DNA of 27,901 nucleotides from a virus (lineage: Duplodnaviria; Heunggongvirae; Uroviricota; Caudoviricetes), in IMG/VR virus record IMGVR_UViG_2684622620_000012; one strand, 5' to 3'. Below the pieces are notes generated by a model, which was given only the letters and a program-made list of their open reading frames with translations, had not been told where the DNA came from and did no database searches. The translations under genes and the position numbers were made by a program. Positions 1-23,107 of the stretch are shown here, one piece after another (the first letter of the stretch is position 1; the number at the start of each line of letters is the position of its first letter).

Positions 1-255
1 ATGAACACTAAGGTGAAAGAAGCAGTAAAATGTTGGGCTTCTAGTCCAACGTGGTTTAGCAGGCATCCAATGGATACGGCGGAGTTCCGACGGGCTGTTT
101 CAAATCTCAAGCGCATTACCCCTACCCCATCTTTCGAAGAAATCAAAGAAGCGATCATGTTCTTTGTTTCCGATGCGCCGACAATGCTAGGTACGCCGTC
201 GGATATTCCTCAGGCGGTTCATGACTTCGCTGGAAAAATTTATAACAAGCTGTGA
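1..255 (+). CDS. hypothetical protein, 84 aa
   Basis: ATG at base 1, stop TGA 253-255, followed by a hairpin at 263-281. No motif recognised. May be the C-terminal part of a longer gene if the window edge cuts it. Confidence 0.4.
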   Translation: MNTKVKEAVKCWASSPTWFSRHPMDTAEFRRAVSNLKRITPTPSFEEIKEAIMFFVSDAPTMLGTPSDIPQAVHDFAGKIYNKL

Positions 256-262
256 GCAAAAT

Positions 263-281
263 GCGGGCTATCCCAGCCCGC
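263..281. terminator. hairpin GCGGGCT-ATCCC-AGCCCGC between convergent ORFs
   Basis: Perfect 7 bp inverted repeat with 5 nt loop; on the minus strand it is followed by ATTTTG. Sits between the stops of 1..255 (+) and 290..493 (-). Confidence 0.4.
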
Positions 282-289
282 ATCCCTAA

Positions 290-493
290 TTAACGCCGTA
301 ACTTGTTTGGCTTCGTCCATTGGTACGCCTTTTCGTTTTCCCGCCGCTGGTGGCGTTCCTGTTGCAGCACAACGGAAACAGGCGCTGAACACCTGTTAAT
401 TTTGCTTGCTGGTTGTTTGATTCCGGCAATGCTGCGGATCATCTCCAGCATATCGGCTTCGGTGATGGTCATAGGTTTCCTATCAGCACTCAT
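290..493 (-). CDS. hypothetical small protein, about 67 aa
   Basis: Track ORF 290..499 opens with TTG; first ATG is at 493. No clear Shine-Dalgarno. A plus-strand ORF 303..503 competes. Confidence 0.3.
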   Translation of the reverse strand: MSADRKPMTITEADMLEMIRSIAGIKQPASKINRCSAPVSVVLQQERHQRRENEKAYQWTKPNKLRR

Positions 494-521
494 ATCCAAT
501 TAATAAGTTCAATACAATGGA

Positions 522-1106
522 TTATCCCGTTTTAGTGACTAACCATTGCAGAATAACGATAATTAAATATGTTAATGTGCCAGTTCCAAGAAGTATTAAT
601 AATTGATAGCAACGTAGGGCAATATTACTAATCGATTTTTGCATCACGATATTCACTGGCTCAGCCACACACTCTTTAGATCTTATCGATAGAATACTTG
701 GAACTTCTCTATTTATTGATAATATTTCACATTGAATAGACTCACTAGGTGCAAGGCTTTCAAACTTGATAATATAGCGACCATCCTGTTCAATATTTTC
801 TTCAAAATGGTGGACAGGCCAAAAATTAATATGCATTGGCTTATAGTTAAAAACCAATGATATATTAGTAGCACTTTCTCGCCCTTCATTAACAAGAATA
901 ATAGATCGTGTATACACCAACTGTGAATTAGATATTACCTCACCATTAGCATTCCGTAAGGGTTCATTGAGAAGAAAAGTAAATCCATGCTGATAACCAT
1001 AGGATAACTTTGCCTTGCTTTTAAATCTGTTATTCAGTATCCATGTTAAAATCGCTATAAAAAAAGAAAATAGTTCTTTCCCATAAAGATTAAAAAAACT
1101 CATCAC
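522..1106 (-). CDS. membrane protein with N- and C-terminal transmembrane helices, 194 aa
   Basis: Hydrophobic helices FSFFIAILTWIL (N-term) and LLILLGTGTLTYLIIVILQWLV (C-term) flank a ~140 aa soluble region. GTG at 1106 and ATG at 1103, with AAGGAAA upstream. Markedly AT-rich compared with neighbours. Confidence 0.6.
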   Translation of the reverse strand: MMSFFNLYGKELFSFFIAILTWILNNRFKSKAKLSYGYQHGFTFLLNEPLRNANGEVISNSQLVYTRSIILVNEGRESATNISLVFNYKPMHINFWPVHHFEENIEQDGRYIIKFESLAPSESIQCEILSINREVPSILSIRSKECVAEPVNIVMQKSISNIALRCYQLLILLGTGTLTYLIIVILQWLVTKTG

Positions 1107-1225
1107 ACATTTCCTTCAGTAATCTGATTCTGCTGTCAAAGTTACCAGCACTATAGTCATTCATCCACATTGCGACAAGAAGGTTACAGCACGTTCAATC
1201 ACACCTTAGGAAATCTTAGGGGGCT

Positions 1226-1499
1226 GGTTGACACTTTCCGGCTTAAGACCTTAATAAATCTTAATATCGCAGGTTGACACACTTGACACTTTTTCGGGAA
1301 AAACCTTAACAAAACTTAACCATCCCTGGCATTTCTAAGCATGGCAACTTGACACTTTTCGCGATTTTTTCGGTTTTTTGACGTGGTGAATATGGTACAA
1401 GGCCAGTAATGGCGCGGCTTCCAGCAAGGTTGACACTTTTTCGCGTTCAGAGTGTAAAGTGTCAACCTGGCAAGCTGCTCAACTTGACACTTTTTGAGG
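1226..1499. repeat. array of six direct and one inverted copy of GGTTGACACTTTT(CG) (iteron-like)
   Basis: Direct copies at about 1226-1239, 1272-1280, 1281-1298, 1345-1363, 1426-1445 and 1481-1499; inverted copy AAAGTGTCAACC at 1457-1468. Second motif CTTAA(T/C)AAA(A/T)CTTAA occurs twice at 1248-1266 and 1305-1320. Confidence 0.7.
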
Positions 1500-2027
1500 T
1501 CATTGATGGCCTGATTTTTCCCATTCAGCCAGGGCGTTTAGTCCTGCCTCACTCCATGTGTCCTGTTCATCGGGACAATCGCTGGCAACATAGCATAGTT
1601 CACAACGCAGCATATGAATTGCCAGCCAGGCATTACCCCGCAAATTGTATTGTTCAAAGTAATGCTGTCCTTCATCATCCTCAAGGCAGATAGCACCATC
1701 ATCAAGAAAGTGCACTTCCCAGCCTAATTCCCCGGCTGCATTCAGCACACGCTGCCGTATGTCATCGTCCGTTACTGGCGCAGGGATTTTACCGTCTCTG
1801 GCCTTAACTGCTTTCCAGAACTCGCCCCACGTCATTTCCAGCGTTCTCTCTGGCCACATTTCAGAAACGGTGTCTTTCCCCTGTGCTGGTGGGCTGTTCC
1901 GCTGATCTGTCGCATCCACATCAATTTTTTTGCCAGACATGATCACTTCGCCTTTCTCGATCCAGTCGTAAACTGTCTGGCGGCTTACGCCTTTGTATTT
2001 GGCGTATTCGGCTTTACTCATCAACAT
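1500..2027 (-). CDS. DNA-binding protein with N-terminal helix-turn-helix (MerR/excisionase-like), about 175 aa
   Basis: N-terminal SKAEYAKYKGVSRQTVYDWIEKGEV resembles HTH_17/excisionase-type motifs. GAGGTGA sits 5 nt upstream of the ATG at 2027; the track ATG at 2045 lacks an SD. Confidence 0.6.
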   Translation of the reverse strand: MLMSKAEYAKYKGVSRQTVYDWIEKGEVIMSGKKIDVDATDQRNSPPAQGKDTVSEMWPERTLEMTWGEFWKAVKARDGKIPAPVTDDDIRQRVLNAAGELGWEVHFLDDGAICLEDDEGQHYFEQYNLRGNAWLAIHMLRCELCYVASDCPDEQDTWSEAGLNALAEWEKSGHQ

Positions 2028-2127
2028 GTAGCTCACCTCATGCATATACGATAAAAAAATAATTTCATGCGGAAAGGGAATGCGTTGTGGGTATGGAGGA
2101 AAGGGGCAATAACCGCCCCTTACTGAT

Positions 2128-2400
2128 TCAGTTGCGCCAGGATGGCTGGCTAAGCGTGGTTTTCATTACATCATTGACGACCTGTTTTACGATTTCTGTG
2201 TTGGCAGTCGTGCTTTCAACATCAACAAAGCCATAATCGCCAATTTCCACCGTCAGGGATTCCAGTTTCTTCCCTAGAGCATCAGGCAACTCTCCACTGA
2301 ACCGGTGCTGAAGATTTTCCACCAGCAACGCCCTGAATGCCTCGCTGTTCTCTTTTTTCTGCCATAGCTGGCGTTTATCCACTCTGATATTTAATTTCAC
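2128..2400 (-). CDS. hypothetical protein, 90 aa
   Basis: GTG start with strong SD AAGAGGTGA 5 nt upstream; start overlaps the stop of the upstream gene (GTGA), suggesting translational coupling. Confidence 0.55.
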   Translation of the reverse strand: MKLNIRVDKRQLWQKKENSEAFRALLVENLQHRFSGELPDALGKKLESLTVEIGDYGFVDVESTTANTEIVKQVVNDVMKTTLSQPSWRN

Positions 2401-2564
2401 AGTCTCACCTCTTTAAGTGCCTTATCCATCAGTTGCCGAGCGATAACATGAATCGACGGTGCCACACCAAGCACAGATTTCTGACGCTCTTCGTCCTGGA
2501 TGCGTTGCAGGGCTTCGATCTGCCTCCGGGAAAGTAAAACTGGCTTTACTCCGTGATTTTTCAT
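2397..2564 (-). CDS. small putative ribbon-helix-helix-like DNA-binding protein, 55 aa
   Basis: MKNHGVKPVLLSRRQIEALQRIQ...: short beta-strand-like N-terminus followed by two predicted helices. ATG at 2564; stop overlaps the downstream GTG start. Fold assignment is tentative. Confidence 0.45.
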   Translation of the reverse strand: MKNHGVKPVLLSRRQIEALQRIQDEERQKSVLGVAPSIHVIARQLMDKALKEVRL

Positions 2565-2842
2565 GATGATCCCTTCTGAATGACAATAATTGCAATTATT
2601 GCACAAATTGAAATGATACCAGAGACAATTGCAATAAATGAAACGAAAAGCATCAATAAACCAACCTTCGGCACTGAATGCTCTGATTTTTCTGCAAAGG
2701 TATGGCAGATGTTGGTGCATGCAAACATAAAGGCAATAGCAGAAGAAACAGCGGGGAGTGAAAAGGGGAAGTTTTTATAAATACACGATTGTCGCCTCAC
2801 TGCAGGTTAACAGCCACAAGCTCCATGATAATAACTTGTTAA

Positions 2843-3166
2843 TTATTTCATCAGATTTTTCATTATTTGCGCGATTGAGTACACAAGCAAAAACTCGGCA
2901 GCCGCAAGAGTATAAAAAACATAAATTCGCTTAGCCCACCGACGATGAAAGAACTCCTCAGCATGGCCGGATGTTCGAGATACAAGCCATGCACCTACTG
3001 CACACAGAGCAGGTGCAATGAGCACAGTTATAAACCAGATTGTGATGCCCATCCCATACCTACTGATAATAGCCATTGGTATTGCAAAAATGAATGTTAG
3101 AGCAGCATTAGCTAATAGAATATCTTTTAAAGTATTTTCAATTAGTTTTTCTAGATTATCTTTCAT
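2843..3166 (-). CDS. small integral membrane protein, 107 aa
   Basis: Three hydrophobic segments (e.g. ILLANAALTFIFAIPMAII, ITIWFITVLIAPALCAVGAWLV); ATG at 3166 preceded by a G-rich SD; AT-rich. Confidence 0.6.
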   Translation of the reverse strand: MKDNLEKLIENTLKDILLANAALTFIFAIPMAIISRYGMGITIWFITVLIAPALCAVGAWLVSRTSGHAEEFFHRRWAKRIYVFYTLAAAEFLLVYSIAQIMKNLMK

Positions 3167-3196
3167 CTAATCCCCCCCGTTGAACATTAATATATA

Positions 3197-3219
3197 AAAG
3201 CCCCTTACTAAGGGGCTTT
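3197..3219. terminator. perfect hairpin AAAGCCCCTTA/TAAGGGGCTTT between lipoprotein and membrane protein genes
   Basis: 11 bp inverted repeat with A-run upstream and T-rich sequence downstream on the minus strand; sits just after the lipoprotein stop at 3231. Confidence 0.55.
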
Positions 3220-3230
3220 GCACGGATTGT

Positions 3231-4373
3231 TTAAAGGGAACTTTTTTTCGCCCCTTCAATTTCTGCCTGACAAATTTCGTCATTTGTAAATGAGTACTGC
3301 AAATAGACATATCCCTGAGTGGAATTGTTCGCTCTGGCCTCAATATATATAGTATCAATATTGTTTTTTAATGGTATTTCTTTTGTTCCCTTCCATGTGG
3401 CAGATAAGAAGCGTTCTTTTTTGTTTAGCCCCCTCATCCAGTCCTGAGGATCTTTCCAAATTGAACCAGCCAGCAAAAAGTCTGTAGTATCAGCCTTTCC
3501 ATACAGAGAACTTAAAGAATTACTCAATTCTTCAAACTTGGATTTAAGAGCCAATCCATAGCTATCAGTATCAATATTTTTTCCTAAAGCCCGTATTTGA
3601 CATAAACCAGCTTTCGGGGAGATCAACAAACCATACATTTCAAAATCTGCGTTTTGCTTCGGTAATTTATCAGAAGTATACAGATTCACACTGTCTGGTA
3701 GTGGCTTGAGCTTAGCACCGATCATATCTTCGATGTTTTTCTGTGTAAGACCGGCTTCTAAGCCAAACGGACCATCCGCTGGCGGGAGTAAAGGAAGTTG
3801 CTCTTGGGAATTTTTGGCTGTTACTTCCGTTTCAGTACTGTTTTTTGCGTCATTATCTTGTACTGATGCCAGCTTAACTTCAGCGAGGCCATACTTGGCT
3901 GTGAGGTACTTTTGCTGCAACATTGCCATGGTCTGCTCTTCAGTGGCAACAGTAGATAATTTTAGTACCTTTATCAGACCACCACTATACTGACGAGCAT
4001 CAGCTTTGGCTTCGTTGATTTTTGCATCTAAGCTGTCAATTTCAGTTTTAATTGAAGCCGCAAGCTCAGGATCAGGTTTTACTCCAGATACAACAACATC
4101 AATTTTGGCGCCTGATTCAATAGCATTAATACGCTGTTCCAAAAGCGCTTTATTAGTTCCTAATATTTCCAGTCTTGCTGTTGTCAGATTTTTTATCAAC
4201 CCACCAGAAAACTGCTGGTCAACTTCCTTAGCTGCTGATATTTCACCTTCCGTTTGCGACAGTTCAGCTTTAAGAGCCGCTACTTCCTGTTTCTGTTCTG
4301 GAGTTAACTCTTCTGGCCCACATCCGGTTAACATTACTATACCGACTAATGTTGCAATTAAAGTTTTATTCAT
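3231..4373 (-). CDS. lipoprotein with coiled-coil-like internal repeats, 380 aa
   Basis: Signal peptide plus lipobox (MNKTLIATLVGIVMLTGC); an internal ~40 aa segment is duplicated (QQFSGGLIKNLTTARLEILG... and RQYSGGLIKVLKLSTVATEE); ATG at 4373; AT-rich. Confidence 0.75.
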   Translation of the reverse strand: MNKTLIATLVGIVMLTGCGPEELTPEQKQEVAALKAELSQTEGEISAAKEVDQQFSGGLIKNLTTARLEILGTNKALLEQRINAIESGAKIDVVVSGVKPDPELAASIKTEIDSLDAKINEAKADARQYSGGLIKVLKLSTVATEEQTMAMLQQKYLTAKYGLAEVKLASVQDNDAKNSTETEVTAKNSQEQLPLLPPADGPFGLEAGLTQKNIEDMIGAKLKPLPDSVNLYTSDKLPKQNADFEMYGLLISPKAGLCQIRALGKNIDTDSYGLALKSKFEELSNSLSSLYGKADTTDFLLAGSIWKDPQDWMRGLNKKERFLSATWKGTKEIPLKNNIDTIYIEARANNSTQGYVYLQYSFTNDEICQAEIEGAKKSSL

Positions 4374-4507
4374 ATCCCTATTCCAAATGAAAATATTCAG
4401 ATTAATCGTATCAGGAACCCAGATGCAATTGAATATTCATCTGCTCAGCAACGTAGTAGATTTCCTCAGAAAGCATCAACAAAAAACCAAGAGAATCCCA
4501 TCCTCTG

Positions 4508-4795
4508 TTACTGACTACAATTGTTCTTTTTTTGGTATTTCCTGAATGCCTCACCATTGGGCTGATGTAATCCCATCCCGACATGTGCCCGGCTGATGGT
4601 TTTGCGCATCTCCCCGAAATTATCCTGCCTTGCTGGTGGGCGTGCTGCCTTGTGGATACATTCCGCGCGACGTTTTGCCGCCTGTTCCCGTGCCTTGTCA
4701 TCATTCGCCAGCATGATGACCTCAGCCCACCGAGCCGCCGCTCTCCGGTACAGACCACGCGCTTCCAGTGCTTCCGCTTTGCTGTCGTGAATCAT
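4508..4795 (-). CDS. PerC-like transcriptional regulator (tentative), 95 aa
   Basis: N-terminal SKAEALEARGLYRRAAARWAEVIM resembles the conserved N-terminus of PerC/Pch-type regulators as I recall it; start overlaps the FinO-like stop (ATGA). Confidence 0.45.
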   Translation of the reverse strand: MIHDSKAEALEARGLYRRAAARWAEVIMLANDDKAREQAAKRRAECIHKAARPPARQDNFGEMRKTISRAHVGMGLHQPNGEAFRKYQKKNNCSQ

Positions 4796-5370
4796 GCGCC
4801 TGTTTTCTCCTTTGCTGCCCGGCGCTGACGTTTGCGCTTCTCATTCAGCGCCACCAGCCGCGTTTCTGCGTCCTGTTGTTCCTGTGGTGTCACCTCGCCG
4901 CACGGCTGGCCTTTCAGGTCGTAGCGTACCCCACCAGCCATTAAGGCGCGGTAATAGCGCGGACACTGCGCATAAGATGCCAGCGTCGCACGTAATGCCC
5001 CTGGCCCGAATGCCAGCCCCCTGACGGCGAGATTCTGCATCAGGTCGTCAAATATTCCCACCTTAAGCGGCTTCGGTGCTTCCCGGTTGAATAATTCAGG
5101 CCACAACTCAGTAAGGCGGTTAACGCGCCTGCGATTTTTGCGCTGGCGTTTGGTCATATGCCGCCACGATGTCGCCCCTGTGAGCTTCTGCTGCGCTTTC
5201 TGGTTACCGAGCATCACTTTATGCGCCGATGGGGTTTTATCCTGCTCCTGTGCCGCCTGCGTCGTTTTCTGCGGCGTGCCGTAAATGCCTTTCGGTTTTC
5301 TGTTAATGGTCAGCTTAGTCATGCTTTGCCCCATCGTTTTTACTGATTGTTTCATGCCCGGTACTTTCAT
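4792..5370 (-). CDS. FinO/ProQ-domain RNA-binding protein with basic N-terminal extension, 192 aa
   Basis: C-terminal half (LTELWPELFN...PLKVGIFDDLMQNL...LRATLASYAQCPRYYRALMAGGVRYDLKGQPCGEV) aligns by eye with the ProQ N-terminal/FinO domain of E. coli ProQ. Start uncertain: no good SD at any in-frame ATG. Confidence 0.75.
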   Translation of the reverse strand: MKVPGMKQSVKTMGQSMTKLTINRKPKGIYGTPQKTTQAAQEQDKTPSAHKVMLGNQKAQQKLTGATSWRHMTKRQRKNRRRVNRLTELWPELFNREAPKPLKVGIFDDLMQNLAVRGLAFGPGALRATLASYAQCPRYYRALMAGGVRYDLKGQPCGEVTPQEQQDAETRLVALNEKRKRQRRAAKEKTGA

Positions 5371-5399
5371 CTACCATCAACGTCAAAACTACGAAACGG

Positions 5400-5674
5400 G
5401 ATGCATTCATATAGATGCGCTGAACGTATACTGCAATAATGGCTGGGTGGAAATCGACAAAAACATCGCCGAAAACGCCTAACGTGGTGTGGCAGTGGGC
5501 CGGAAAAACTGGTTGTTCGCAGGTTCCAACAGCGGTGGCGAACATACTGCGGTGCTGTACTTGCTGATCGGCACGTGCCGTCTGAACAAGGAGGAGCCAG
5601 AAAAATGGTTGCGTTACGTCATTGAGCATATCCCGGACTGGACGGCAAACCGGGTACGTGATCTGTTGTCCTAG
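5400..5674 (+). pseudogene. IS66-family transposase, C-terminal remnant with in-frame stop
   Basis: GWVEIDKNIAENA*RGVAVGRKNWLFAGSNSGGEHTAVLYLLIGTCRLN... matches the conserved IS66 TnpC C-terminus (EIDNN...GRKNWLF...); TAA at 5480-5482 interrupts the frame; only ~90 codons of a ~500 aa transposase are present. Confidence 0.65.
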
Positions 5675-5962
5675 AAAGCCGATCTAACCGGGCAATAAAT
5701 ATCAAAACGGTTTTGGCGAGCCGCTTGCATCTCAACAAAACAATTGATATTTAAATAATAAAAATACATACACTACAATAAGTTAAATTATGAGGTTATA
5801 TTGGGGATACTTCACATAAAGAGTTATGATGACCCCGGATAACTTTATCGAAAGTACCGATGATAATCTAAGTTAACAATGAGTTTCAGTTTTTCGATTC
5901 ATACATGACATGGCTTGCACTATGTAAGTGATTAATTATTAATATTATTTTACGCATAATCG

Positions 5963-5990
5963 AGAAGGGGGCGCTTAAGTACCCCCAAAC
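5963..5990. repeat. AAGGGGGCGCT + CTTAAGTACCCCCAAA motif, shared with the integrase upstream region
   Basis: AAGTACCCCCAA (5977-5988) recurs exactly at 16276-16287; CTTAAGTACCCC(C)AAA recurs inverted at 16299-16314; AAGGGGCGCT recurs at 16333-16342. Also forms a local hairpin (GGGGG...CCCCC) just 3' of the peptidase gene. Confidence 0.4.
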
Positions 5991-5992
5991 TT

Positions 5993-6889
5993 TTAGATAT
6001 GCCGAATAAAGGATTGGTTATTAGAGCCTTCAATAAGCTTAACTGTAGGAGTGTTGAAAAGGGTTTGTGTACAACAGTGATGTACTGTAAGAACTGCGTC
6101 CTGAAACTGGGGATGGTCTTCAAGCTGAGTGATCCGCAAACCTAATTCAATGGCTCTCTCTGCGTGGATATGCCGAGAATGATCCTTCGTATCCGTACGA
6201 TTGTTTAAGCTTTTGACAATCGCAGTGGCGAGTTCGCTACGCCGAGGTTCAGGTAAATCTTTAAGCATTCCATTTTTTAACCATTCAGTAACCAAATCAT
6301 CGGCAAGCTGAATAGCTTTGCTAGCTGTATCAAAAATGGTAGGTGGGTAGCGCGAGATGATTGTTTGCCAAATCGGGAGGCTGGAAGGTTCTTTTTGAAT
6401 GCTATCAATAGCATTTTTTAACTCTTCCAAAATACCATAAGCTGAAAGACCACCAAAGATATGAGGATCAAAAGGTCCGATACTTGAATGATGCCCCATT
6501 ACAATTTCTTTGCAGGCACACGCAATCATTGTTCCTGCAGACATGCTCATTTGAGGAACAATGGCCCGAATATCACCATTAAAAAGCTTTTTAAGGTAGT
6601 AAACCAGAGACTCAGCCGCAGTTATAGAACCACCAGGGGTATGCAAGAAAAGGTCTAAGCCTTTCGTTCTATCCATTCCGTTAACAACAGCCATGAAACC
6701 ATTTTTGTCATCATCATTGATGCTGACATGCTGATGATTACCGTTATGTAAAAAGTCTGTGTAGTAACATATTACGTTTCTATCAGTACTGTCACTCAAA
6801 GCTTTTATGTACTTACGGCGGACAATATCAAAGCGAGAATCGTCTTGGAGGCTTTGGATTTCCTCCAAGACTTGGGCCAGATTGGGCAT
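5993..6889 (-). CDS. ClpP/crotonase-fold serine peptidase (S49/SDH-like family), 298 aa
   Basis: [20 protein letters not shown]...[23 protein letters not shown] matches the TPGG...SAGT nucleophile region of ClpP/SppA/serine-dehydrogenase-type proteases; AAGGA sits 8 nt upstream of the ATG; AT-rich. Confidence 0.65.
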
Positions 6890-6907
6890 GGGATGGTAAC
6901 GTCCTTG

Positions 6908-7132
6908 TTAAGCTTTTGTAGTGGTGCTTACATGCAAAGTTGAGTAGCCAGTTGTTCTGGTAGAACACTTAAGCTTAGTCATCTCATGTTGATGAGAAAA
7001 ACTTGCAACACCGCTTAAGCCGCCGAACTCATGGCTCATTGCGCCAAATTGTTGTGGGAACTGGATACCTGAAGTATTTGATGCCACAAGTCCCGTTTCC
7101 AAGAGAATTTTTTCGTAATTGATTTCAGCCAT
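6908..7132 (-). CDS. small hypothetical protein, 74 aa, upstream partner of the peptidase
   Basis: ATG at 7132 with GGAG 8 nt upstream; stops 18 bp before the peptidase start. S/T/G-rich with no recognised motif. Confidence 0.4.
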   Translation of the reverse strand: MAEINYEKILLETGLVASNTSGIQFPQQFGAMSHEFGGLSGVASFSHQHEMTKLKCSTRTTGYSTLHVSTTTKA

Positions 7133-7210
7133 GTTAGTACTCCGCTAAATGTAGTGCTTGCGTCAATGCTTCGACACTACATGTTGTTTTTATAGTTCTT
7201 TTTAGACAGA

Positions 7211-7244
7211 AAAACCCCGCTGTCTGGCGAGGTTTTATTTTTCT
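7211..7244. terminator. hairpin AAAACCCCGC...GCGAGGTTTT with flanking T-runs
   Basis: ~10 bp imperfect stem with loop TGTCTG, followed by TTTATTTTTC on plus and TTTTTC on minus; separates the helicase-fragment region from the peptidase operon. Confidence 0.35.
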
Positions 7245-7379
7245 TATGCTGATAATAGCAGCAATTATAAGAAGTCAAAGTCTTTTTATGTAAATTTTAA
7301 GCTGTTAGGGGTGATTTTTCTCTAACTTGTTGATTCGTTCTCAAGCTAAGTCATGTTTTAAGAGCGGCAACTGCACTAA

Positions 7380-8274
7380 TAACCTGCCCGTTCTCAGACA
7401 TGATTCGTGAAAATGCGAGACGTTTCAGCTGCTCCATATCGAGTCCAGGAGCCCGTAGTAATGCATCAGACAGTTCCTGCTACTTTCCGCTGTACATCGA
7501 CAGCAGCATTTTCCTGACTGCTGCGCTCGAACCTACCGAATGCCTGAACATCATCAGATGCCAGTGGTTTAACCGGTGAGAATCTGTTCATCAGATAATC
7601 GAGAATGTTTGCAGTCTGCTTGCTTACGGCAGACACACCACGAGTAAAGGATTTAAGCGTGTCCAGATTCCACCCGCTCTGCGGTTTTTTGCCTGTTCGT
7701 TAAAATCCGGATCGTTGCGGATAACGTCAAGCAATTCTGCCTCTACTTCTGCCCGCTGCGCCATGACGCGTAGGTTAGTCAGTTCGCCGACCATGCCGCA
7801 GAATAAAGCATCCATCTGAGTATTTGGCGCAGCAACCTTACCGGCATAATCCACCAGCATTCCCACGCAATCAGCTAGCCGCTTCAGGTGGTCACAGAAG
7901 GCGTACAGCTTTACCTCCAGTGCCTCTTTGCTGTTCCGTTTCCTCAGCAGCAGCGCCCGCTCTTTTTCCGGGGTCCTTATCTTCCTCACTGACGCGACAG
8001 TTAAACTGGAAAATAACACGGCGACGGGCAACGCTTCCGGCGTGTTCGGTAAAAATCATCGGCGTATTATTCGTGGCCACAACCACCGCCCGGCATATTC
8101 TGTAAAACTTACGCTCTGTCCCTGTCGCATCCAGTGCGCAATCATGATCAGAGTTCTGGTAAAGCGGTGAATATCGCCGCATAGTCCACATGATGTCGCA
8201 AAACTTTTCAGCTCTTCACGCTCTATGTAAGTCATACCCTGAGGTATGTAACGTTCTGTTTTCATTTTTAACAT
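7380..8274 (-). pseudogene. decayed C-terminal fragment of a D5/P4-alpha-type (SF3) primase-helicase
   Basis: Three broken ORFs (8056..8274, 7892..8191, 7624..8031). The middle one carries VVVATNNTPMIFTEHAGSVARRRVIFQFN, resembling SF3 helicase motif C plus the downstream RR...F segment of D5/P4 primases. No Walker A/B upstream; frame changes and an in-frame stop present. Confidence 0.4.
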
Positions 8275-8280
8275 TCCTGA

Positions 8281-8680
8281 TTTTTTAATTCCTCACCTGC
8301 TGCGCAGTGAGAATTTATGAAGTTAATAACAATATGATTTTAAATATATTTTTAAGCACTCACTTTTTAATCCTTATATATACGCAAAAGTGAGGTAAAT
8401 AGTTAAGTTTTAGTTAATATCTTGCATGGTATGTTTTTTAACCTACCTGTTATTTTTATTACCTCATTTCTATTAACTCACCATTCCTCACTTTTGTTCC
8501 TCACTTTTTGTTATTCTTGTTCTGCTCCTCAGTCGTTTTCTTTATTGTTGTAATATGTTGTTTTGCAATGTTTTTTTAATTCCTCATTTTTTGATCTATA
8601 TACAGGTGAGAAAGTGAGGAAAACAGGGATGATTTTTAAATATTCCCTTCCCCCCTCACTTTTACGCTTCACTTTTTACA
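8281..8680. repeat. iteron-rich AT-rich region (more than 10 copies of TTCCTCACTTTT in both orientations), candidate origin
   Basis: Copies at about 8291, 8358, 8388 (inv), 8461, 8477, 8486, 8499, 8581, 8606-8620 (inv pair), 8653, 8668; exact 15-mer TTTTTTAATTCCTCA at 8281-8295 and 8573-8587; lies immediately 3' of the helicase gene. Confidence 0.6.
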
Positions 8681-10088
8681 GTGGGCGCACATCATCACCG
8701 TCAATAGCGATTACGCCGTCACCTTCCAGCTTGTACAGCCAGCGCCGGAAGTTTTTCATCTCATACCCCAGCTTTTTCATGTCATCGCGCAACAACGGAA
8801 TAGTACATTTATCTCCGCGTTGCGTGCGTGAACGAATACAACCCCATAGTGCGGCGTGATTCTCCGTCTTGTTCCCAGCTTCCTCGATGCGCTCCAGTTC
8901 AACCGGCGGACGGGGCTTATCCTCCAGCACCAGCGACGTGATTAACTCCCCGCCCTCATCCTTGAAAAGCTCAACCTCGCGCAAATCGCAAGCCATTTCT
9001 TTCAGTTCCTCCGCATCCTTCATCTTGGTACATGCGATAACCAGGGCTTCACTGCCTGCACCTTCACGGCGTATCCGGTATTCTGCATCCAGTGCTGCAC
9101 GAAACGCACTGGAACCGCGCGCACCCTTTGTTTCATCCTTGCCGGAATGGTGAATTACCAGCACTGTAGCGCCTGTACGTCGTTTCAGTTCGTCACATCC
9201 ATGGACAAATGCCCCCATATCCCGCGCATCATTTTCATCGCTGCCACCAAAGCAACGCGCCAGAGTATCCAGAATAATCATGCGTACAGGTTTACCCGTT
9301 TCCTGCTCAACCTGTCGGGCAGCAATAACCATTTCATCAACATCACCCGGTGCGGCCGGAAAAATTGGACGATTTACCAGGTATAGATTTTTCACCTGCT
9401 CACTGTTCACCAGTTCCCATGCCTTGATACGACGAGGAACACCGATCCCGCCCTCACCAACGACATACATCACCGCACCATGTACAACCCTGCGACCTCC
9501 CCACGGGATACCGGTAGCAACATGACACGCCCACGAACACGCAAGGAACGACTTATAAGAACCGCTCGCACCGTATGTGCTACATAGCGAATTAGCCGGA
9601 ATCACGCCCTTAACTACATAGCTAAGCTGTGAATCATATCCTTCCGATCCAATGCTCATTGGTAGCGTGGTTTTTCGCTGGCTGTATTGCTCGTCAGTAA
9701 GTATTTCCCCGCGCTCAGCCTGTTCGCGGATCCGTTGCAGGTAGTCGTGCCAGTTCTCCGGCTCCCCGTCGGTGATACCTTTGTATAATTTCGCCTCCTG
9801 TACGCCAGCCAGCGCCAGCTTTTCAGCGATAGCATTGATCTGGATTGGTTCGATCTCCCCCGCGAGATAGACACGCGCAAAGCGGCGTTCATCGTCGACA
9901 ATGCGGATATTCGCCAGGTCTGCCAGTTGCTTTGGCCCCAGGTAAACAGGTGGTACGTTATCGCCGTGTTTTCGTCCTTCGCTTTCAATCCAGTGTTGAG
10001 CATGGGCGTAAGCATCCGTCCCGGCAAAAATGATTACCTCGGTGAATTTATCCTTCGGCTGATATTTTAAATTCGGTGCGTTTTTCAC
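8676..10088 (-). CDS. RecA-like NTPase, RepA/DnaB-type replicative helicase (AAA_25-like), 470 aa
   Basis: P-loop YGASGSYKS, Walker B-like MIILDTLARCF, and VLVIHHSGKDETKGARGSSAF typical of RepA/DnaB-family helicases; GTG start with GGGAGGT 6 nt upstream, overlapping the upstream stop. Confidence 0.7.
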   Translation of the reverse strand: MKNAPNLKYQPKDKFTEVIIFAGTDAYAHAQHWIESEGRKHGDNVPPVYLGPKQLADLANIRIVDDERRFARVYLAGEIEPIQINAIAEKLALAGVQEAKLYKGITDGEPENWHDYLQRIREQAERGEILTDEQYSQRKTTLPMSIGSEGYDSQLSYVVKGVIPANSLCSTYGASGSYKSFLACSWACHVATGIPWGGRRVVHGAVMYVVGEGGIGVPRRIKAWELVNSEQVKNLYLVNRPIFPAAPGDVDEMVIAARQVEQETGKPVRMIILDTLARCFGGSDENDARDMGAFVHGCDELKRRTGATVLVIHHSGKDETKGARGSSAFRAALDAEYRIRREGAGSEALVIACTKMKDAEELKEMACDLREVELFKDEGGELITSLVLEDKPRPPVELERIEEAGNKTENHAALWGCIRSRTQRGDKCTIPLLRDDMKKLGYEMKNFRRWLYKLEGDGVIAIDGDDVRPL

Positions 10089-10375
10089 TTCTTACCTCCC
10101 GCAACCAACATTGCCCGGATTTTTTTAATATTCGTGGCTGCACGTCTCGCCACCGCCTGTTGTTTGTTTTCAACCAGAATAAAATCACGCTCAAACTGAC
10201 GGCGCGGCATTACGCAGTCATATTCGTAAGCCTCACGGCGGTAGGTGATATTGCCTGGCGTAACGTGACGAATAACCACTCGTCCCCCACGTCTGGTGTC
10301 GCGGTAAATATCTCCGTGTCTGATTTCAGGCCGAGAGAGACCGCTGGCAGTAAAGCCAGAATTTTTCTTTTTCAT
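10085..10375 (-). CDS. hypothetical basic protein, 96 aa
   Basis: Member of a chain of tightly packed minus-strand small genes; stop overlaps the helicase GTG start. Confidence 0.5.
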   Translation of the reverse strand: MKKKNSGFTASGLSRPEIRHGDIYRDTRRGGRVVIRHVTPGNITYRREAYEYDCVMPRRQFERDFILVENKQQAVARRAATNIKKIRAMLVAGGKK

Positions 10376-10379
10376 GGTT

Positions 10380-10580
10380 TTATTTTCCTGTCAGCAGTTC
10401 CGGTTTTATTTCCGCACGAATACAAAGTTCAGAAAAAAATTCAGGAGAACCAACAATCTCATTACTTTTCAGTCGGCATTGTGATTTCACTTTCCCTTTA
10501 TCTAGGTAAACCAGTACGCGTCCGGTGAAATCATCTGGCACATTAAGCACTACGGGTACATGCGCTTCATGATTATGCAT
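10380..10580 (-). CDS. hypothetical protein, 66 aa
   Basis: Start overlaps the upstream gene stop; no recognised motif. Confidence 0.45.
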   Translation of the reverse strand: MHNHEAHVPVVLNVPDDFTGRVLVYLDKGKVKSQCRLKSNEIVGSPEFFSELCIRAEIKPELLTGK

Positions 10581-10806
10581 GGCTTACATCCTCCGTGAAT
10601 TTTCTTCTGTAACGCGTCTCTGCCACATATTCCGCATAGTCTGACGCAATACTAAGAATCATTTCACCCTCTGACTTGTAGCCACTGGTATTGATAAGAA
10701 AATATGCAGCTTTCATCATGTCAGCAACGCTCAACAATGCGCCCGCTGCATCTTCCTGTGCGCCATCAAATTCCCGTTTCAGGGAATTAAAACGATCATC
10801 ACGCAT
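10573..10806 (-). CDS. hypothetical acidic protein, 77 aa
   Basis: Start overlaps the upstream stop; no recognised motif. Confidence 0.45.
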   Translation of the reverse strand: MRDDRFNSLKREFDGAQEDAAGALLSVADMMKAAYFLINTSGYKSEGEMILSIASDYAEYVAETRYRRKFTEDVSHA

Positions 10807-11164
10807 GTTTACCCCCCTGAATGACCTGATAACCGCAACTGGTCAGCAACTCGATAAATTCCGGCAGTGTGCCGAAACAGCAATCATCACGCAGCCGTTC
10901 GCAGGATACCTCGACGCCGTTTTCGTAGTGACTCACCATACGTCCGGTAAAATGCAGATCATCATCGTGATGACTCGTTGACGGCTTAATCAGTCGCGCA
11001 CGTTCCGCCAGTTCCAGCAATGCTTCAACGCTTCCGGCAATTGCACCATCCGGCAGGTGATAATTACGCACTATGCGCCCGTTCTCCACATTGACCAGCA
11101 ACTGCCCGGTAAATTTCTCGTCAAACTGAATGCTGTTAAGGTCAGAAATTGACAGGTTATGCAT
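10799..11164 (-). CDS. hypothetical protein, about 121 aa
   Basis: ATG at 11164 with AGGAGG upstream, 2 nt after the upstream stop; the track ORF extends to 11182 without an RBS. Confidence 0.5.
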   Translation of the reverse strand: MHNLSISDLNSIQFDEKFTGQLLVNVENGRIVRNYHLPDGAIAGSVEALLELAERARLIKPSTSHHDDDLHFTGRMVSHYENGVEVSCERLRDDCCFGTLPEFIELLTSCGYQVIQGGKHA

Positions 11165-11381
11165 AGTGCACCTCCTGCACATCAGCCATGATAATTTTTC
11201 CGGCCTTATCCAGTGCCTGATCGGCTTTTAGCTGCACAAATGCTAAATAATGGAAGATGCATTCTGATTCTCTGGCTGCGTGTTTATGCGCCACACCAGC
11301 GATAGCAGAAATCTCAATAAGTGAATCCATCAGCGTTTTGATAGTGTCTACCGCTGCATCAGGCCATGTTGCATTACACAT
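11157..11381 (-). CDS. hypothetical protein, 74 aa
   Basis: ATG at 11381 overlaps the stop of the upstream gene. Confidence 0.45.
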   Translation of the reverse strand: MCNATWPDAAVDTIKTLMDSLIEISAIAGVAHKHAARESECIFHYLAFVQLKADQALDKAGKIIMADVQEVHYA

Positions 11382-11739
11382 GCTCCACCTCCTGGCGAAT
11401 ACGGGCAGTGAATACCATCACGCAGCCATCAGGAGATTGCTGGCGTGCTTCCTGTTCGCTGGTGGCCTCGATGTGAATCACGCGCGGTTGTGCCGTACTC
11501 AGGGCGATAAAACGCCATATAAAATTGTTTTCGCATTTCTGAATAAACAGCGTGTTTTCTTCGCGCCCTTTCCATGTTGCCGAGATATAGCCCATGTCAT
11601 TGAGCATCTTGCAGGCATCAACCAGCGTATCGGCGGCTACGTGTACAGTGTTTTTACCGTCAGCCATGCAATCACGGTGCACCGCCAGGAAGGTGTATAT
11701 AAATTTAGGGTGAGTTTGAGTATGCTGTGTTCCAGCCAT
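11374..11739 (-). CDS. hypothetical protein, 121 aa, first gene of the early operon
   Basis: ATG at 11739 with GAGGT 7 nt upstream; the track ORF runs on upstream to 12831 in the same frame, but that upstream part looks non-coding or frameshifted. Confidence 0.5.
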   Translation of the reverse strand: MAGTQHTQTHPKFIYTFLAVHRDCMADGKNTVHVAADTLVDACKMLNDMGYISATWKGREENTLFIQKCENNFIWRFIALSTAQPRVIHIEATSEQEARQQSPDGCVMVFTARIRQEVEHV

Positions 11740-11813
11740 AATCGTTACCTCATTTAACGGTTTGGTTAGACGCCCTGCATGTGTTGCGAGCACTGCGGGG
11801 CGTTGCTCTTTTA

Positions 11814-11861
11814 GGTGTATTTCACCTTTGCTTTTTAATTTACTTACTGGTGAAATACACT
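11814..11861. promoter_or_regulatory. operator-like inverted repeat GGTGTATTTCACC ... GGTGAAATACAC(T) in a divergent promoter region
   Basis: 12/13 bp inverted repeat separated by 22 bp, between the early operon start (11739) and the divergent RHH gene (11927); TATACT -10-like hexamer at 11891-11896. Confidence 0.5.
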
Positions 11862-11926
11862 TCAAGCCTTTTTTTATCATTTTTTTTGCGTATACTGACA
11901 TACACCAATTTTTAGGAGATCCAGAA

Positions 11927-12106
11927 ATGGCAACTGGTGCAAAGAACGCAAAATCACAAATGACAACTGTCAGAATCCCACATGAAGTAATGGATGATAT
12001 TGAGCAACTTAAAGAACCTGGCGAAAGTACCGCTGGTTTTTTAGTTACTGCTGCAAAAGGCGAGATCAAACGCCGCCAGCGCCGCAAGGCCAAAGAACAG
12101 GAGTAA
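11927..12106 (+). CDS. small ribbon-helix-helix-like regulator, 59 aa
   Basis: AGGAGAT SD 6 nt upstream of the ATG; MTTVRIPHEVMDDIEQL fits an RHH beta-strand plus helix; divergent from the early operon; basic C-terminal tail. Confidence 0.5.
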   Translation: MATGAKNAKSQMTTVRIPHEVMDDIEQLKEPGESTAGFLVTAAKGEIKRRQRRKAKEQE

Positions 12107-12823
12107 CCATCACCAGCGCCGTGGTGTGAGGGACTACGGTGCATCGTTTTACAGGGCAGCGCCATGACCAACAAAGAATCAACCAATACACCATCACCGG
12201 CACGGAAAAGACAGCGCAGAAAGATAGCGTACGAGCATGAGTCAAACAGATTCGCGCCCTGTGCGTTTATCCTTGAGAAATTCCTTAAAGAGTACAGGCG
12301 CACAAAAATGGGATCGCATACCTGGAAAACATCGCGGCATGGCGATGTTAAAGAGCAGGAATAGCCCACCAGCAAGCCAGCATATTCACCATAATGACCC
12401 TCAGTTAAACATAGAGTCATTGGTGCAAAGCTGACACATTGCCCACCAGCCGCAAATCTGGCATTGTTGGCGATGCGTTCAAGTATGTAGCTTTCCCACT
12501 GGCGGCCCTCTGCGGTCGCCTTTGTTTTATCCAGAACGAAATCAGACATCAGATTGATCAGCACCTGGCGACCTGACAAAATCGCATCAGTCGCGCCACC
12601 AGCAAAATTTTTTGCTTTTCGGACAGTGTGATCAACGACATTTTGCAGCAAAATATTCTGCATTTCTGGCGTGCTGTAGTAACGGTGATCAGCGCCTTCA
12701 CTCTGTGCGACCACAACGCTATAATCTGCCTCGTAGACAGTAAGCAATATGGCGCAGTAGGCTATTCGTTCACAAAGGCGCTCCGGCAACGGGGCGCTTT
12801 CTCTTTTTGTAACGGTCAGAGCG

Positions 12824-13624
12824 TTACACATGGCTGTTTTCCTCCATGCGACGGGCTAACCAACGCTGCGAAAGACGAATTAATTCAGCCTTCCGCTGGT
12901 GGTAGTCCTGGCCTAACTCAATCAGCGTGATATTGCTCTGCTCAAGGTAAGAAAGGTGCTCAAGCTGCAACGTGCTCATGTGGTCGCGTGGTTCGCCTGT
13001 AATGCCGTTCGCCAGTGCCCACTGTTTTGCAGTCATGCCACCCAGCACGATACGCGCCAGCATGCTCGCTTCCGTGGTGTAGTGGTGCTGGAGTGTGTTT
13101 TTACCCAGTTCAGCCCGGTACGCCTCCAGCGCGGCACACATTGGCTTAAAGTAGCTGGCAACTGTGATACGGGCTTTCAGTTCCCGGCGTAACGCTGCGG
13201 AACGAACAGGCGCAACCTTGTGTAGCTCCTCCTCGCATTTGATAAAGTACTGGCGAACGGCGCGGCCCTGTTCGGTACGTTCGACCATCGCCAGTTCTTT
13301 CGCCATGTTCACTGTGATGATGTACTCAAGAGCGGTTTGCTGGCGAGATTTTGCGCTCACCGGATCGGGTCGGCTCAAATATTCAACAACCTCATAATCC
13401 ACGCCTTCCGTGAACCCGTATTCTTCAATGCGCCCCTTGATCCACGAACGGAAAACGCGCCCTACACCTAACGCCTTATGTAACGCTCTGGCGCTAACAA
13501 TAGTGGTTTCACTCCCGCCAATAACGCCGGAAATAATCGGGATAATTTCGCCGAAATTTTGCAGATTCTGGTTTTCAGGCCGAACGAAGCCCCGCCCCTG
13601 TACGGGCGTTTTTGGAAATTTCAT
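12824..13624 (-). CDS. phage antirepressor-like protein (AntA-type N-terminal domain), 266 aa
   Basis: TTIVSARALHKALGVGRVFRSWIKGRIEEYGFTEGVDYEV resembles the AntA/AntB antirepressor N-terminal domain; downstream of alpA on the same strand. Confidence 0.6.
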   Translation of the reverse strand: MKFPKTPVQGRGFVRPENQNLQNFGEIIPIISGVIGGSETTIVSARALHKALGVGRVFRSWIKGRIEEYGFTEGVDYEVVEYLSRPDPVSAKSRQQTALEYIITVNMAKELAMVERTEQGRAVRQYFIKCEEELHKVAPVRSAALRRELKARITVASYFKPMCAALEAYRAELGKNTLQHHYTTEASMLARIVLGGMTAKQWALANGITGEPRDHMSTLQLEHLSYLEQSNITLIELGQDYHQRKAELIRLSQRWLARRMEENSHV

Positions 13625-13701
13625 AAAAACTCCTGCTATCGAATTAAGTTACTTTTATTTGCTGGTGGATAGCTGGGGGCAATAGCCCCGTAGCCATTTA
13701 A

Positions 13702-13899
13702 TCAGGTAGCTGTTCCGCGTGATTCCGCAATACGCTGATTAATCCACTCGTCAATTTCACTCTCAACGAAAGCAATAGCTCGCGAGCCAATTTTAACTGA
13801 TGCAGGAAATTTACCTTGCCCCATAAGGCGATAAATCCATGCCTTGCTATATCCAGTTCTACGCTGAACTTCTGTTAAACGAATAAGCGTATTTGACAT
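13702..13899 (-). CDS. alpA: AlpA-family transcriptional regulator, 65 aa
   Basis: LIRLTEVQRRTGYSKAWIYRLMGQGKFPASVKIGSRAIAFVESEIDEWI is a close match to the AlpA (CP4-57 regulatory protein) HTH signature. Confidence 0.85.
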   Translation of the reverse strand: MSNTLIRLTEVQRRTGYSKAWIYRLMGQGKFPASVKIGSRAIAFVESEIDEWINQRIAESRGTAT

Positions 13900-14093
13900 A
13901 TATTTACCTCATAACGTCTACTCAATTTGACGAGGTAATCATGGCACAGAAATAACGAATATTTTCATACCCTCAGGCCTAATGGTTACCGGAAGGAAAT
14001 TAACCCTAAGGGTGATGGTAAAATTGACGGGGAAGATAAAAAAATACCCTCAGGGTAACAGTAAATCACCCTCAGGGTATGCGGTATGGTGCG

Positions 14094-14891
14094 TTAATCC
14101 GGCTTTGCGTTCTTTTGGCTGTTGTCTCGGTTAATAGGGCAGGCAGTCCTCTCTATGAGCGTTGCAAGTGCATTACTTGCCCCCCACTGCTTAAGCTCCC
14201 TAGTTATCGCTTCTTGATTTCCCCTGGTGGCAAAATCATTTTCTGGATCGTAATTGGCCCACTCTCTGTTTCTAATCTCAATAGCCTTAGCTAATGGGTC
14301 TTTATCCCAGTATTTATATAAGTGTATCGGGCGCTCTTGCTCTAACTGCTCTATCCTTGCCCTTAACTCTGCGTTTTCTTTTTCCAGCATTGCGATTTGG
14401 GATAATAAATCATCCTCTGTACGCAACTCTTTCTTTTCAATATCGCGTCCTTGTGCCTCGTCATTTTCAGAAGAGTTAGCGCCTTCCAGCTTCGTTAACG
14501 CGTCAAGGACATCGGGAAAAATTGCGAAAATTTCACCCCTTATAAATCCAATGTTCTCAAATTCGGGATCTTCCCAATAACCGGACACCAGAAAACCATT
14601 TTCATCCCTCTCACCAGGTAAACAACCACGTTTCCGAACCGCATTCAGATTTCTATAAAGAACATCATAATCAAATTCATCCCGATACGGGTTACAAAAA
14701 GATTCCAACAGCTTAAATTCATTTACTGTGTACAGGCGGATATGTTCTCCGCTTATTCTCCTGAGTATCCAAGTTATGACATCTGAAACATCATAATCAT
14801 CACCAGCGACCTTAAGCACGACCTCAAGAAATTCACGTAAAGAAATAAAATCTTTTTTGTATTCGTTTAATTCGGCATGAATATCAATCAT
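14094..14891 (-). CDS. hypothetical protein with central coiled coil, 265 aa; cargo gene between int and alpA
   Basis: ATG at 14891 with GAGGT 6 nt upstream; leucine-zipper-like segment LLSQIAMLEKENAELRARIEQLEQE; lower GC than flanking genes; no recognised catalytic motif. Confidence 0.6.
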   Translation of the reverse strand: MIDIHAELNEYKKDFISLREFLEVVLKVAGDDYDVSDVITWILRRISGEHIRLYTVNEFKLLESFCNPYRDEFDYDVLYRNLNAVRKRGCLPGERDENGFLVSGYWEDPEFENIGFIRGEIFAIFPDVLDALTKLEGANSSENDEAQGRDIEKKELRTEDDLLSQIAMLEKENAELRARIEQLEQERPIHLYKYWDKDPLAKAIEIRNREWANYDPENDFATRGNQEAITRELKQWGASNALATLIERTACPINRDNSQKNAKPD

Positions 14892-15019
14892 ACGCACACC
14901 TCAGCGTCCTCTACTGTAGTGGCTGTACCAGTCCGTCGAGGTGTACGGATTTTCGGGAGCGACCCTAGACACAGCCTTTTCTTTCGTCGCTCAAAGTCTA
15001 CTACTGTATACGCAACCAG

Positions 15020-16234: not shown

Positions 16235-16342
16235 TTGGGGGTACCTCCACTAAACCGAACAGCAAATACCCCCAAAAGTACCCCCAATTGACTGTAGATT
16301 TTGGGGTACTTAAGTAGACGTCAAAAGACTAAAAGGGGCGCT
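16234..16342. repeat. cluster of GTACCCCCAA / GGGGTAC motifs and AAGGGGCGCT upstream of the integrase
   Basis: TTGGGGGTACC (16235-16245, inverted), ATACCCCCAAAAGTACCCCCAA (16266-16287), TTTTGGGGTACTTAAG (16299-16314, inverted), AAAAGGGGCGCT (16331-16342); one copy each also at 5963-5990. Confidence 0.5.
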
Positions 16343-16562
16343 AACATGCGGATTATAAGAGGTTTTTAAATACTTGAGTAGACTTGGGGAGACGTTAGAA
16401 TGGTGCCGATAATAGGAGTAAAACACTCGATTAATCTCGTGTTAATGCCATCACCTACGACCATTACTAATTGATTGAATCTTATAGAAAAAATCATCAT
16501 TTTCTATGCGTTACAATCAATTTTCACATTACAAACGCTCCGACACTTTAGCCGGGGAGTTT

Positions 16563-17840: not shown

Positions 17841-17847
17841 ACGTAAT

Positions 17848-17880
17848 AAAGAGGCTTCAACATAGATTGGTAGCCTCTTT
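17848..17880. terminator. bidirectional hairpin AAAGAGGCT...AGCCTCTTT between convergent genes
   Basis: Perfect 9 bp inverted repeat with 15 nt loop and flanking A/T runs, in the 80 bp gap between the recombinase stop (17840) and the 17922..18635 gene stop. Confidence 0.55.
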
Positions 17881-17921
17881 TATAATTACATCGTTACAGA
17901 GCGTTTTAGAGGCGTTTACGG

Positions 17922-18635: not shown

Positions 18636-18669
18636 AATAATAATTTTCCTTGTAATGTTATGGCGGGAA

Positions 18670-20508: not shown

Positions 20509-20519
20509 TTAAAATCCCC

Positions 20520-20723: not shown

Positions 20724-20753
20724 ATTTTAATCACCTCTCAAAATTTAAAAAAA

Positions 20754-20779: not shown

Positions 20780-20808
20780 ACGCCACGCCTCTAATACACG
20801 TTAAAATA

Positions 20809-21837: not shown

Positions 21838-21855
21838 TTATTATTATTCCTTTTA

Positions 21856-23106: not shown

Positions 23107-23107
23107 A

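Follow-up and report, generated by a model that had tools for sequence, protein, structure and literature searches.

The subject of this analysis is a gene for a small helix-turn-helix (HTH) protein, here called HTH-A, and the array of short repeats that adjoins it in a putative phage satellite of IMG/VR record IMGVR_UViG_2684622620_000012; "the window" means the whole 27,901-nucleotide stretch of that record. The HTH-A gene (1500-2027, minus strand) encodes 175 amino acids and matches RefSeq CDS WP_032200748. Next to it on the 3' side, 7 nt past its stop codon, begins the array, which has a GC content of 43% and contains no AT-rich unwinding stretch and no Rfam family. Its basic unit, the A site, is the 10-mer TTGACACTTT, of which there are six exact copies, all within 1228-1493 and none elsewhere in the 27.9 kb. 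Five are on the plus strand (1228-1237, 1283-1292, 1349-1358, 1430-1439 and 1484-1493) and one is inverted (1456-1465, minus strand); a further direct copy at 1274-1280 (plus strand) keeps only the 7-mer TTGACAC, all seven occurrences of which in the window are confined to the same interval. Shuffled sequence is expected to hold 0.11 copies of the 10-mer, and none of 100 shuffles reached six. The preliminary description of this DNA, which had reported six direct copies and one inverted copy in 275 bp immediately 3' of an HTH gene, is thus correct in its count, in its placement and, at about 270 bp, in its span; the repeat sequence that it gave is real in its core, but the GG prefix is found in only four copies and is CT in the others.

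On the strand of the gene, a logo built from 47 sites in 11 diverse arrays reads AAAGTGTCAA(C/G)(C/T), and the conservation covers AAAGTGTCAAC, not just the TTGACA hexamer. The distinction matters for one of the readings first proposed for this DNA, a promoter cluster in which each TTGACA serves as a -35 element. All seven hexamers are indeed perfect, as had been claimed. A scan of 400-2500 found no -10 hexamer (A2 and T6 required) spaced 16-18 nt after any of them, and six of the seven are oriented antisense, reading into the end of the HTH gene. For lack of a -10 partner at any copy the promoter cluster is unsupported, and we attach almost no credence to it. Site conservation and the association with the recognition domain of HTH-A favour the other option in that description, a stack of protein-binding sites.

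Two further elements are interleaved with the A sites. Four B motifs of the CCTTAnnAAAnCTTA type occupy 1204-1220, 1249-1265, 1304-1320 and 1325-1340; the pair of CTTAA-AAA-CTTAA motifs noted earlier is present at 1250-1264 and 1305-1319 but belongs to this set of four and does not stand by itself. A central conserved box, CAAGGCCAGTAATGGCGCGGCTTCCAGC (1398-1425), separates the proximal from the distal A sites; its 28-nt consensus on the strand of the gene, GCTGyAAGCCCCGCCrTTACTGGnTTTG, is kept in arrays of E. coli, Raoultella, Pantoea, Serratia and Erwinia, and the box is a candidate host-factor site or cleavage site. The layout is also kept across genera: first comes an inverted pair of A sites, one 9-25 nt past the stop codon and the inverted one another 25-45 nt on, then the box, and beyond it two to four composite A+B units. 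In the E. coli, Raoultella and Pantoea arrays the B motif begins 13-15 nt after the start of the A site, giving a composite unit of about 32 bp, and across arrays it varies as GCTTAGAAATGCCAGG, GTTAAGTTTTGTTAAGG or CCTAAGATTTCCTAAGG (CTTAG/TTAAG type). Units of A then B can be seen by eye in the array of Scandinavium, the HTH-A protein of which is only 36% identical.

When the array was compared with phages at E values up to 10, the array alone gave matches at the level of chance. The central box gave a weak match (35 nt, 86%, E=1) in the chi-like Salmonella phage YSD1, which fits the box consensus, lies between TTGTAACC repeats and is 440 nt from the YSD1 cos end; because of that E value and that distance we keep it as a lead only. 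The cos-proximal non-coding region of YSD1 (L202, 240-520) has TTGTAACC and GGTTACAA repeats on either side of the box-like sequence. Scanning IMG/VR with a 15-mer from the box returned about 120 unrelated contigs, a 15-mer being too short for that collection to be informative.

HTH-A belongs to a family of 72 homologue clusters, found in Enterobacterales only and nearly all annotated as hypothetical, in which every homologue keeps the start MLMSK and the putative recognition helix VSRQTVY.W does not vary. Its AlphaFold2 model (predicted local distance difference test score 87.9) consists of a winged helix (residues 1-43), a disordered linker (about 45-56) and an additional alpha/beta C-terminal domain of about 115 residues. 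Resemblance to known families is limited to the first 45 or so residues, where the winged-helix fold is that of Xis, BldC, TerS and RppC. The closest structural matches to the model were Pukovnik Xis (7.2), the N-terminal domain of a TerS (7lxs; 6.6), lambda TerS (6.3), BldC (6.1), RppC (6.0) and P2 Cox (5.8), in agreement with Foldseek. In sequence, the N-terminus matches HTH_17 below the Pfam threshold and PHROG 57, "terminase small subunit", with an E value of 1.4e-6 over residues 1-42 only. The sole tblastn match in the phage collection was the N-terminus of TerS from Citrobacter phage phiNP (44% identity over 39 residues, 5-43). Pfam Nu1 did not match HTH-A, no sequence similarity to RppC was detected, and neither RppC (6HLK, 6HN7) nor Nu1 emerged from phmmer and profile searches of all PDB chains, run to E=1 and E=10; PADLOC defence families matched neither HTH-A nor its neighbours.

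An N-terminal HTH of the MerR/excisionase type and a likeness to TerS or Rpp had been suggested at the outset. The fold of the TerS DNA-binding domain is there, but comparison with PHROG 57, Nu1 and RppC did not bear out membership of those families: since the PHROG match spans residues 1-42 only and omits the oligomerisation and TerL-binding part of TerS, HTH-A is, on these comparisons, not a TerS, nor is it an Rpp, and its mode of action may still be like theirs. The BFVD collection returned winged-helix matches only. Three unusual relatives of HTH-A were seen. In P0056 the C-terminal half of HTH-A is fused to an AntA domain, and in P0068 its last 45 residues follow the N-terminus of an integrase; both probably arose by deletion within islands, and we rejected them as informative domain fusions. 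P0072 carries the same winged helix and a third, unrelated C-terminal part.

Gene and motif are found together in samples assembled in different ways. Fifteen loci were retrieved by protein similarity alone, a procedure unbiased by the motif, and the 7-mer was scored in them. It is rare overall in these loci and is concentrated just past the HTH-A stop codon, at protein identities of 48-89%. Clusters adjoining the stop occur in E. coli/E. ruysiae, Rouxiella, Raoultella, Buttiauxella and Pantoea, with seven copies in E. ruysiae (L002), four each in Rouxiella (L005) and Raoultella (L007), and three each in Buttiauxella (L008) and two Pantoea loci (L009, L011); other copies in Pantoea are the variant sites GTGTAAA and GTGTTAA. 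The cluster tracks the gene down to protein identities of 36-50%, the lower figure being that of Scandinavium. In the Serratia and Erwinia loci, 1.5-4 kb with an insertion sequence (IS) element or cargo lies between gene and array, so the array is kept even when it is apart from the gene. A pattern search of IMG/VR with the inverted site pair alone yielded 65 stretches, and HTH-A adjoins the array in 49 of them; this set was chosen by motif and is hence biased, which the genome set is not. None of the IMG/VR contigs has terminal repeats, and the position of the array relative to their ends is not consistent. The array is real and conserved; by these comparisons it and HTH-A very likely form a module for protein-DNA recognition, and we infer with considerable confidence that HTH-A binds the adjacent A sites.

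The inserted DNA differs from locus to locus: a 251-aa gene in L006 (6520-8130), an IS-like transposase in L010 (6480-8000) and three genes including one for a 571-aa ATPase in L012 (6650-10290). A common ATATACAGTTTTATACA element precedes the array in all three.

What such a module might do is suggested by a sister family, HTH-B, proteins of 186-194 aa found at eight IMG/VR loci (L044, L022, L049, L052, L069, L073, L075 and L080), mostly in PICI-like satellites (PICI, phage-inducible chromosomal island) with primase, AntA and integrase genes. HTH-B and HTH-A share the winged helix only (49% over 41 aa), and the N-terminal 59 aa of HTH-B are shared with phiNP TerS. The same TTGACACTTT array lies upstream of the HTH-B gene. 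Past that array are about 100 nt, including an invariant GGGCATTGCGCGCCG, that are homologous to the region upstream of phiNP terS and match the linear genome of Serratia phage BZS1 at its positions 1-73. The left cohesive end of BZS1, which its depositors annotate at bases 1-12 (GCATTGCGCGCC), is present exactly in family B. Thus BZS1 and phiNP have a cohesive end, then GGTAACA repeats, then terS, while family B has the cohesive end, then the TTGACACTTT array, then the HTH-B gene in the position of terS, with no terL. The recognition helices differ along with the repeats: R-Q-x-x-Y in HTH-A and HTH-B, which go with TTGACAC, and R-K-x-x-T in the TerS of BZS1 and phiNP, which go with GGTAACA. 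The family B arrangement is that of EcCICFT073 and its Rpp protein, in which helper-type cosQ and cosN are combined with a satellite-specific cosB (PMC6739421). Because the reading domain is homologous and the site identical, the array beside HTH-A would be a recognition site of the same functional class as that of family B.

Of the 119 homologues, every one is annotated as hypothetical except P0117, to which JGI gives the generic label "DNA-binding transcriptional MerR regulator". Ahead of the family B cassette are a tail-fibre-assembly fragment and a pair of paralogous genes, one of 173 aa and the other of 235-275 aa, and in L044 (9255-9600) it lies in a myovirus prophage, between tail-fibre-assembly and sheath genes.

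The island that carries HTH-A makes up the left 16.3 kb of the window; the 1 kb used as a query is 100% identical to the island of E. coli APEC20/16, strain UTAK-5 likewise carries the island at 100% identity, and this 1-kb array region is present in 167 of 5,426 complete E. coli genomes. Pfam recognises a P4-type integrase (15020-16234), AlpA (13702-13899; PF05930, E 2e-19) adjoining it, a RepA-like AAA_25 helicase (8676-10088, minus strand) and further proteins of the AntA antirepressor, PerC and ProQ/FinO types. The annotation contains no terminase, capsid, portal or other structural gene. With an integrase, AlpA, a helicase and origin, a length within the usual 10-20 kb or so and no virion structural genes, the island is by its gene content a Gram-negative PICI-type phage satellite. 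It shares a locus (thrW, between proA and yagU) and a backbone (integrase, AlpA, AntA, an Icd-like protein, DUF4222, primase/helicase and PerC) with the "Type C" PICI EcCIMP1 (PMC11773190), and both are without recognisable capsid or terminase genes. EcCIMP1 differs in having P22-like ejection-protein genes after the primase and no HTH-A gene or array. On this shared gene content the island is one of the PerC-carrying kind of PICI, which lack a recognisable packaging module (Pick et al. 2025, PMC11773190). HTH-A and its array form the last conserved block, past the replication module and ahead of variable cargo, which is where PICI packaging modules sit.

These observations suggest that array and HTH-A are a packaging-recognition module, that is, a cosB or pac site with its specifier protein, constituting the packaging signal of the satellite; we give this proposal about an even chance of being correct. 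A cos/pac-type site was among the readings offered in the preliminary description and is the best supported of them, by the cos position of the array in family B and by the island context. By sequence, the array has what characterises a cosB or pac site: a short site in several copies, with a matching winged helix of the TerS type encoded close by. In the mechanism that we envisage, HTH-A protomers would load on the inverted pair beside the gene and on the distal composite units, much as winged helices of the Xis, BldC and TerS types do on repeats, wrapping the region of about 270 bp around the central box, and the family-specific C-terminal domain would recruit or retarget the terminase of a helper phage, so that replicated island DNA would be packaged in place of, or alongside, helper DNA. 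The array has no cosN-like end sequence, and it is therefore predicted that the helper is a headful (pac) packager or that cleavage takes place within the central box. The arrays of family B have no B motifs; reading them may therefore fall, and here we speculate, to the C-terminal domain of HTH-A or to a partner protein.

Known systems resemble this proposal in part. The TerS proteins of lambda (Nu1), BZS1 and phiNP share with HTH-A the N-terminal winged helix and a target of several short repeats, and in lambda-type cosB a conserved element other than a repeat likewise separates the groups of sites, as the central box does in the array; in lambda that element is I1, a site for integration host factor between the groups of R sites. 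Unlike in those systems, where terL follows the gene, the neighbours of HTH-A are a 90-aa open reading frame (ORF) on one side and array and cargo on the other, and the motif is TTGACAC instead of the GGTAACA of BZS1 and phiNP. Rpp also has the winged-helix fold of the TerS DNA-binding domain, but it dimerises through a three-helix coiled coil where HTH-A has an alpha/beta domain. The cos of EcCICFT073 places helper-like cosQ and cosN next to a different cosB, a cosN that family B has and the HTH-A array does not, and the position of the array 3' of the gene is unlike that described for Rpp (Fillol-Salom et al. 2019, PMC6739421). The GpsA and GpsB proteins of PLE, a satellite of Vibrio and phage ICP1, are likewise satellite factors that with a cis site steer the motor of the helper (Boyd and Seed 2024, PMC11417361); PLE differs in having unrelated proteins and an unrelated host, and it mimics the pac site of its helper, whereas the HTH-A sites appear to be satellite-specific.

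Several results weigh against a packaging role. Neither the window nor the rest of the island nor any HTH-A locus contains a cohesive end of the lambda, P2, chi or BZS1 type, in searches whose lambda pattern recovered the lambdoid prophage of CFT073 as a positive control. No phage in INPHARED shares a segment of at least 85% identity with the island (megablast of 1-16400), nor did the 1-kb array region find one, so no helper was identified. The array is 3' of the HTH-A gene, while the corresponding sites of lambda, BZS1 and family B precede the gene on its 5' side. The C-terminal domain of HTH-A resembles neither TerS nor Rpp, and it has no convincing structural relative in PDB or BFVD. Finally, dense GTGTCAA arrays occur beside AT-rich DNA and replication genes in unrelated phage contigs with neither HTH-A nor HTH-B (L215, 11180-11900; L300, 7030-7520; L251, 8950-9120; L257, 12590-12960), at 7-11 GTGTCAA/TTGACAC sites per 400 nt; they are probably origins of other phages, and the motif alone does not imply packaging.

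Those contigs also raise the question of whether the array serves replication or maintenance, as a second, HTH-A-dependent origin, a cis region like the crr of P4, or a centromere-like site. Iteron-like repeats adjoining the gene for a DNA-binding protein would suit such a role, and the weak box match in YSD1 falls in a repeat region near a primase gene as well as the cos end. The island, however, already has a canonical origin directly 3' of its helicase gene (8280-8680), with 33-37% GC and about ten (T)CCTCACTTT iterons. Because this AT-rich iteron origin is there, we do not take the array, with its higher GC content, for the origin of the island. The iterons and the array motif TGACACTTT both contain CACTTT, and this likeness is probably a coincidence, because the island of E. 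coli ABU 83972 has the same array beside a different replicon. There a primase and P4-type TGTTCACC iterons (L082, 17270-17510) replace the helicase and CCTCACTTT iterons, the initiator is different, and the array is nevertheless 92-95% conserved between the two islands. With regard to partition, the element is integrative and has no ParA or other partition motor. Origin iterons, another of the options in the preliminary description, are thus disfavoured, and we consider a role in replication or maintenance improbable.

Another alternative is recombination, with HTH-A acting as a directionality factor of the excisionase or Cox kind and the array holding its sites, for excision of the island or its helper or for the capture or exchange of cargo. 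Among the best structural matches to the N-terminus of HTH-A are BldC, Xis and P2 Cox, which occupy direct-repeat arrays in head-to-tail fashion and bend the DNA. They are, however, single-domain proteins of 50-90 aa with roles in transcription or site-specific recombination; HTH-A, twice as large as the known directionality factors, has a second domain, and its sites are far from the attachment (att) sites. Several kilobases separate the array from either end of the island (about 2.6 kb in ABU 83972, a greater distance here), and a canonical AlpA already adjoins the integrase. We regard a recombination site as very unlikely.

Regulation is the strongest rival to the packaging proposal. HTH-A would then be a transcription factor and its sites an operator, roadblock or insulator at the border between core and cargo, separating the long leftward operon of the island from the variable cargo or controlling cargo expression. 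The array lies exactly at that border: in several E. coli genomes homology to the window ends at about 1201, its outer edge. Just past it is the only promoter-like site nearby, TTGTCG-17-TATAGT (1150-1178, minus strand), situated in the variable cargo outside the conserved array and upstream of the next gene, of 194 aa (522-1106). Small winged helices of this class (BldC, P2 Cox, AlpA) are often regulators, and UniRef labels two Pantoea homologues of HTH-A "Repressor", which is an annotation and not a test. On the other side, the cargo varies and brings its own upstream DNA while the array stays constant; seven sites with a box and B motifs over 270 bp exceed the needs of an operator, and none overlaps a promoter; and in the sister family the array occupies the position of cosB. 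Regulation therefore seems to us rather unlikely.

Last among the alternatives is a mimic of an origin of transfer (oriT), with which the array would permit mobilisation by a conjugative or mobilisable plasmid. It comes to mind because the 8-mer ACTGGCTT of the box presumably resembles the ColE1 nick region CTGG/CTTAA, and because small accessory DNA-binding proteins are encoded beside a repeat-rich site: HTH-A itself and possibly a 55-aa protein (2397-2564, minus strand) that to the eye looks ribbon-helix-helix-like. The island is without a relaxase, and comparison of the array with 72,556 plasmids gave chance-level matches only. Our estimate for such a mimic is accordingly very low indeed.

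Returning to the packaging proposal, we can formulate a more specific version of it, which we advance tentatively and think rather less likely to hold in full than to fail in some part. The winged helix that reads AAAGTGTCAA would be a portable module fused to at least three unrelated effectors, namely those of HTH-A, HTH-B and the P0072 type. HTH-B and its array would replace cosB at a genuine cos of the BZS1/phiNP type, and HTH-A and its composite array would form a packaging signal without cos, of a kind not yet described and the missing module of the abundant Type C PICIs without terminase or capsid genes, with the C-terminal domain or a partner reading the B motif. Should the relationship between families A and B be as supposed, satellites would retain the domain that reads DNA, together with its sites, and exchange the one that engages the helper. 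Many PICI-like islands of E. coli have no recognisable packaging genes and hence cannot be classified, a matter discussed by Pick et al. (2025) for Type C. A cis site with a candidate specifier would give a handle on the transfer of such islands and of neighbouring defence cargo. The array also marks the edge of a cargo hot-spot and helps to delimit the islands. An example of defence cargo is the GapS1 gene annotated just left of the window.

The remaining features of the window are less closely connected with the array. The 55-aa protein is often encoded upstream of HTH-A and HTH-B cassettes alike, tblastn finding a homologue in 58 of 83 loci with those of family B included, and has no Pfam, PHROG or PADLOC family. 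Between it and HTH-A, directly upstream of the latter, is the gene for the 90-aa protein (2128-2400, minus strand), kept in closer relatives only. Relative to ABU 83972 the island has an extra insert at 2843-4373, between PerC and the 55-aa gene, with ORFs of 380 aa (3231-4373) and 107 aa (2843-3166), which suggests a second variable spot. An int-alpA RNA motif (RF02996, 45.5 bits; 14908-14975, minus strand) was found with Rfam between the gene for the integrase and the one next to it. A second, small phage-like element (16300-27901) adjoins the island at thrW/proA. It has genes for a tyrosine recombinase (16506-17840, plus strand), a tail-fibre-like protein (17922-18635), a tape-measure-like protein of 612 aa (18670-20508), an HK97-type major head protein (20809-21837) and an O-like replication initiator (23941-24594), and from about 25200 to 27000 it contains no ORF of 50 aa or more. 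DNA similar to this second element is present in 1,339 of the 5,426 E. coli genomes.

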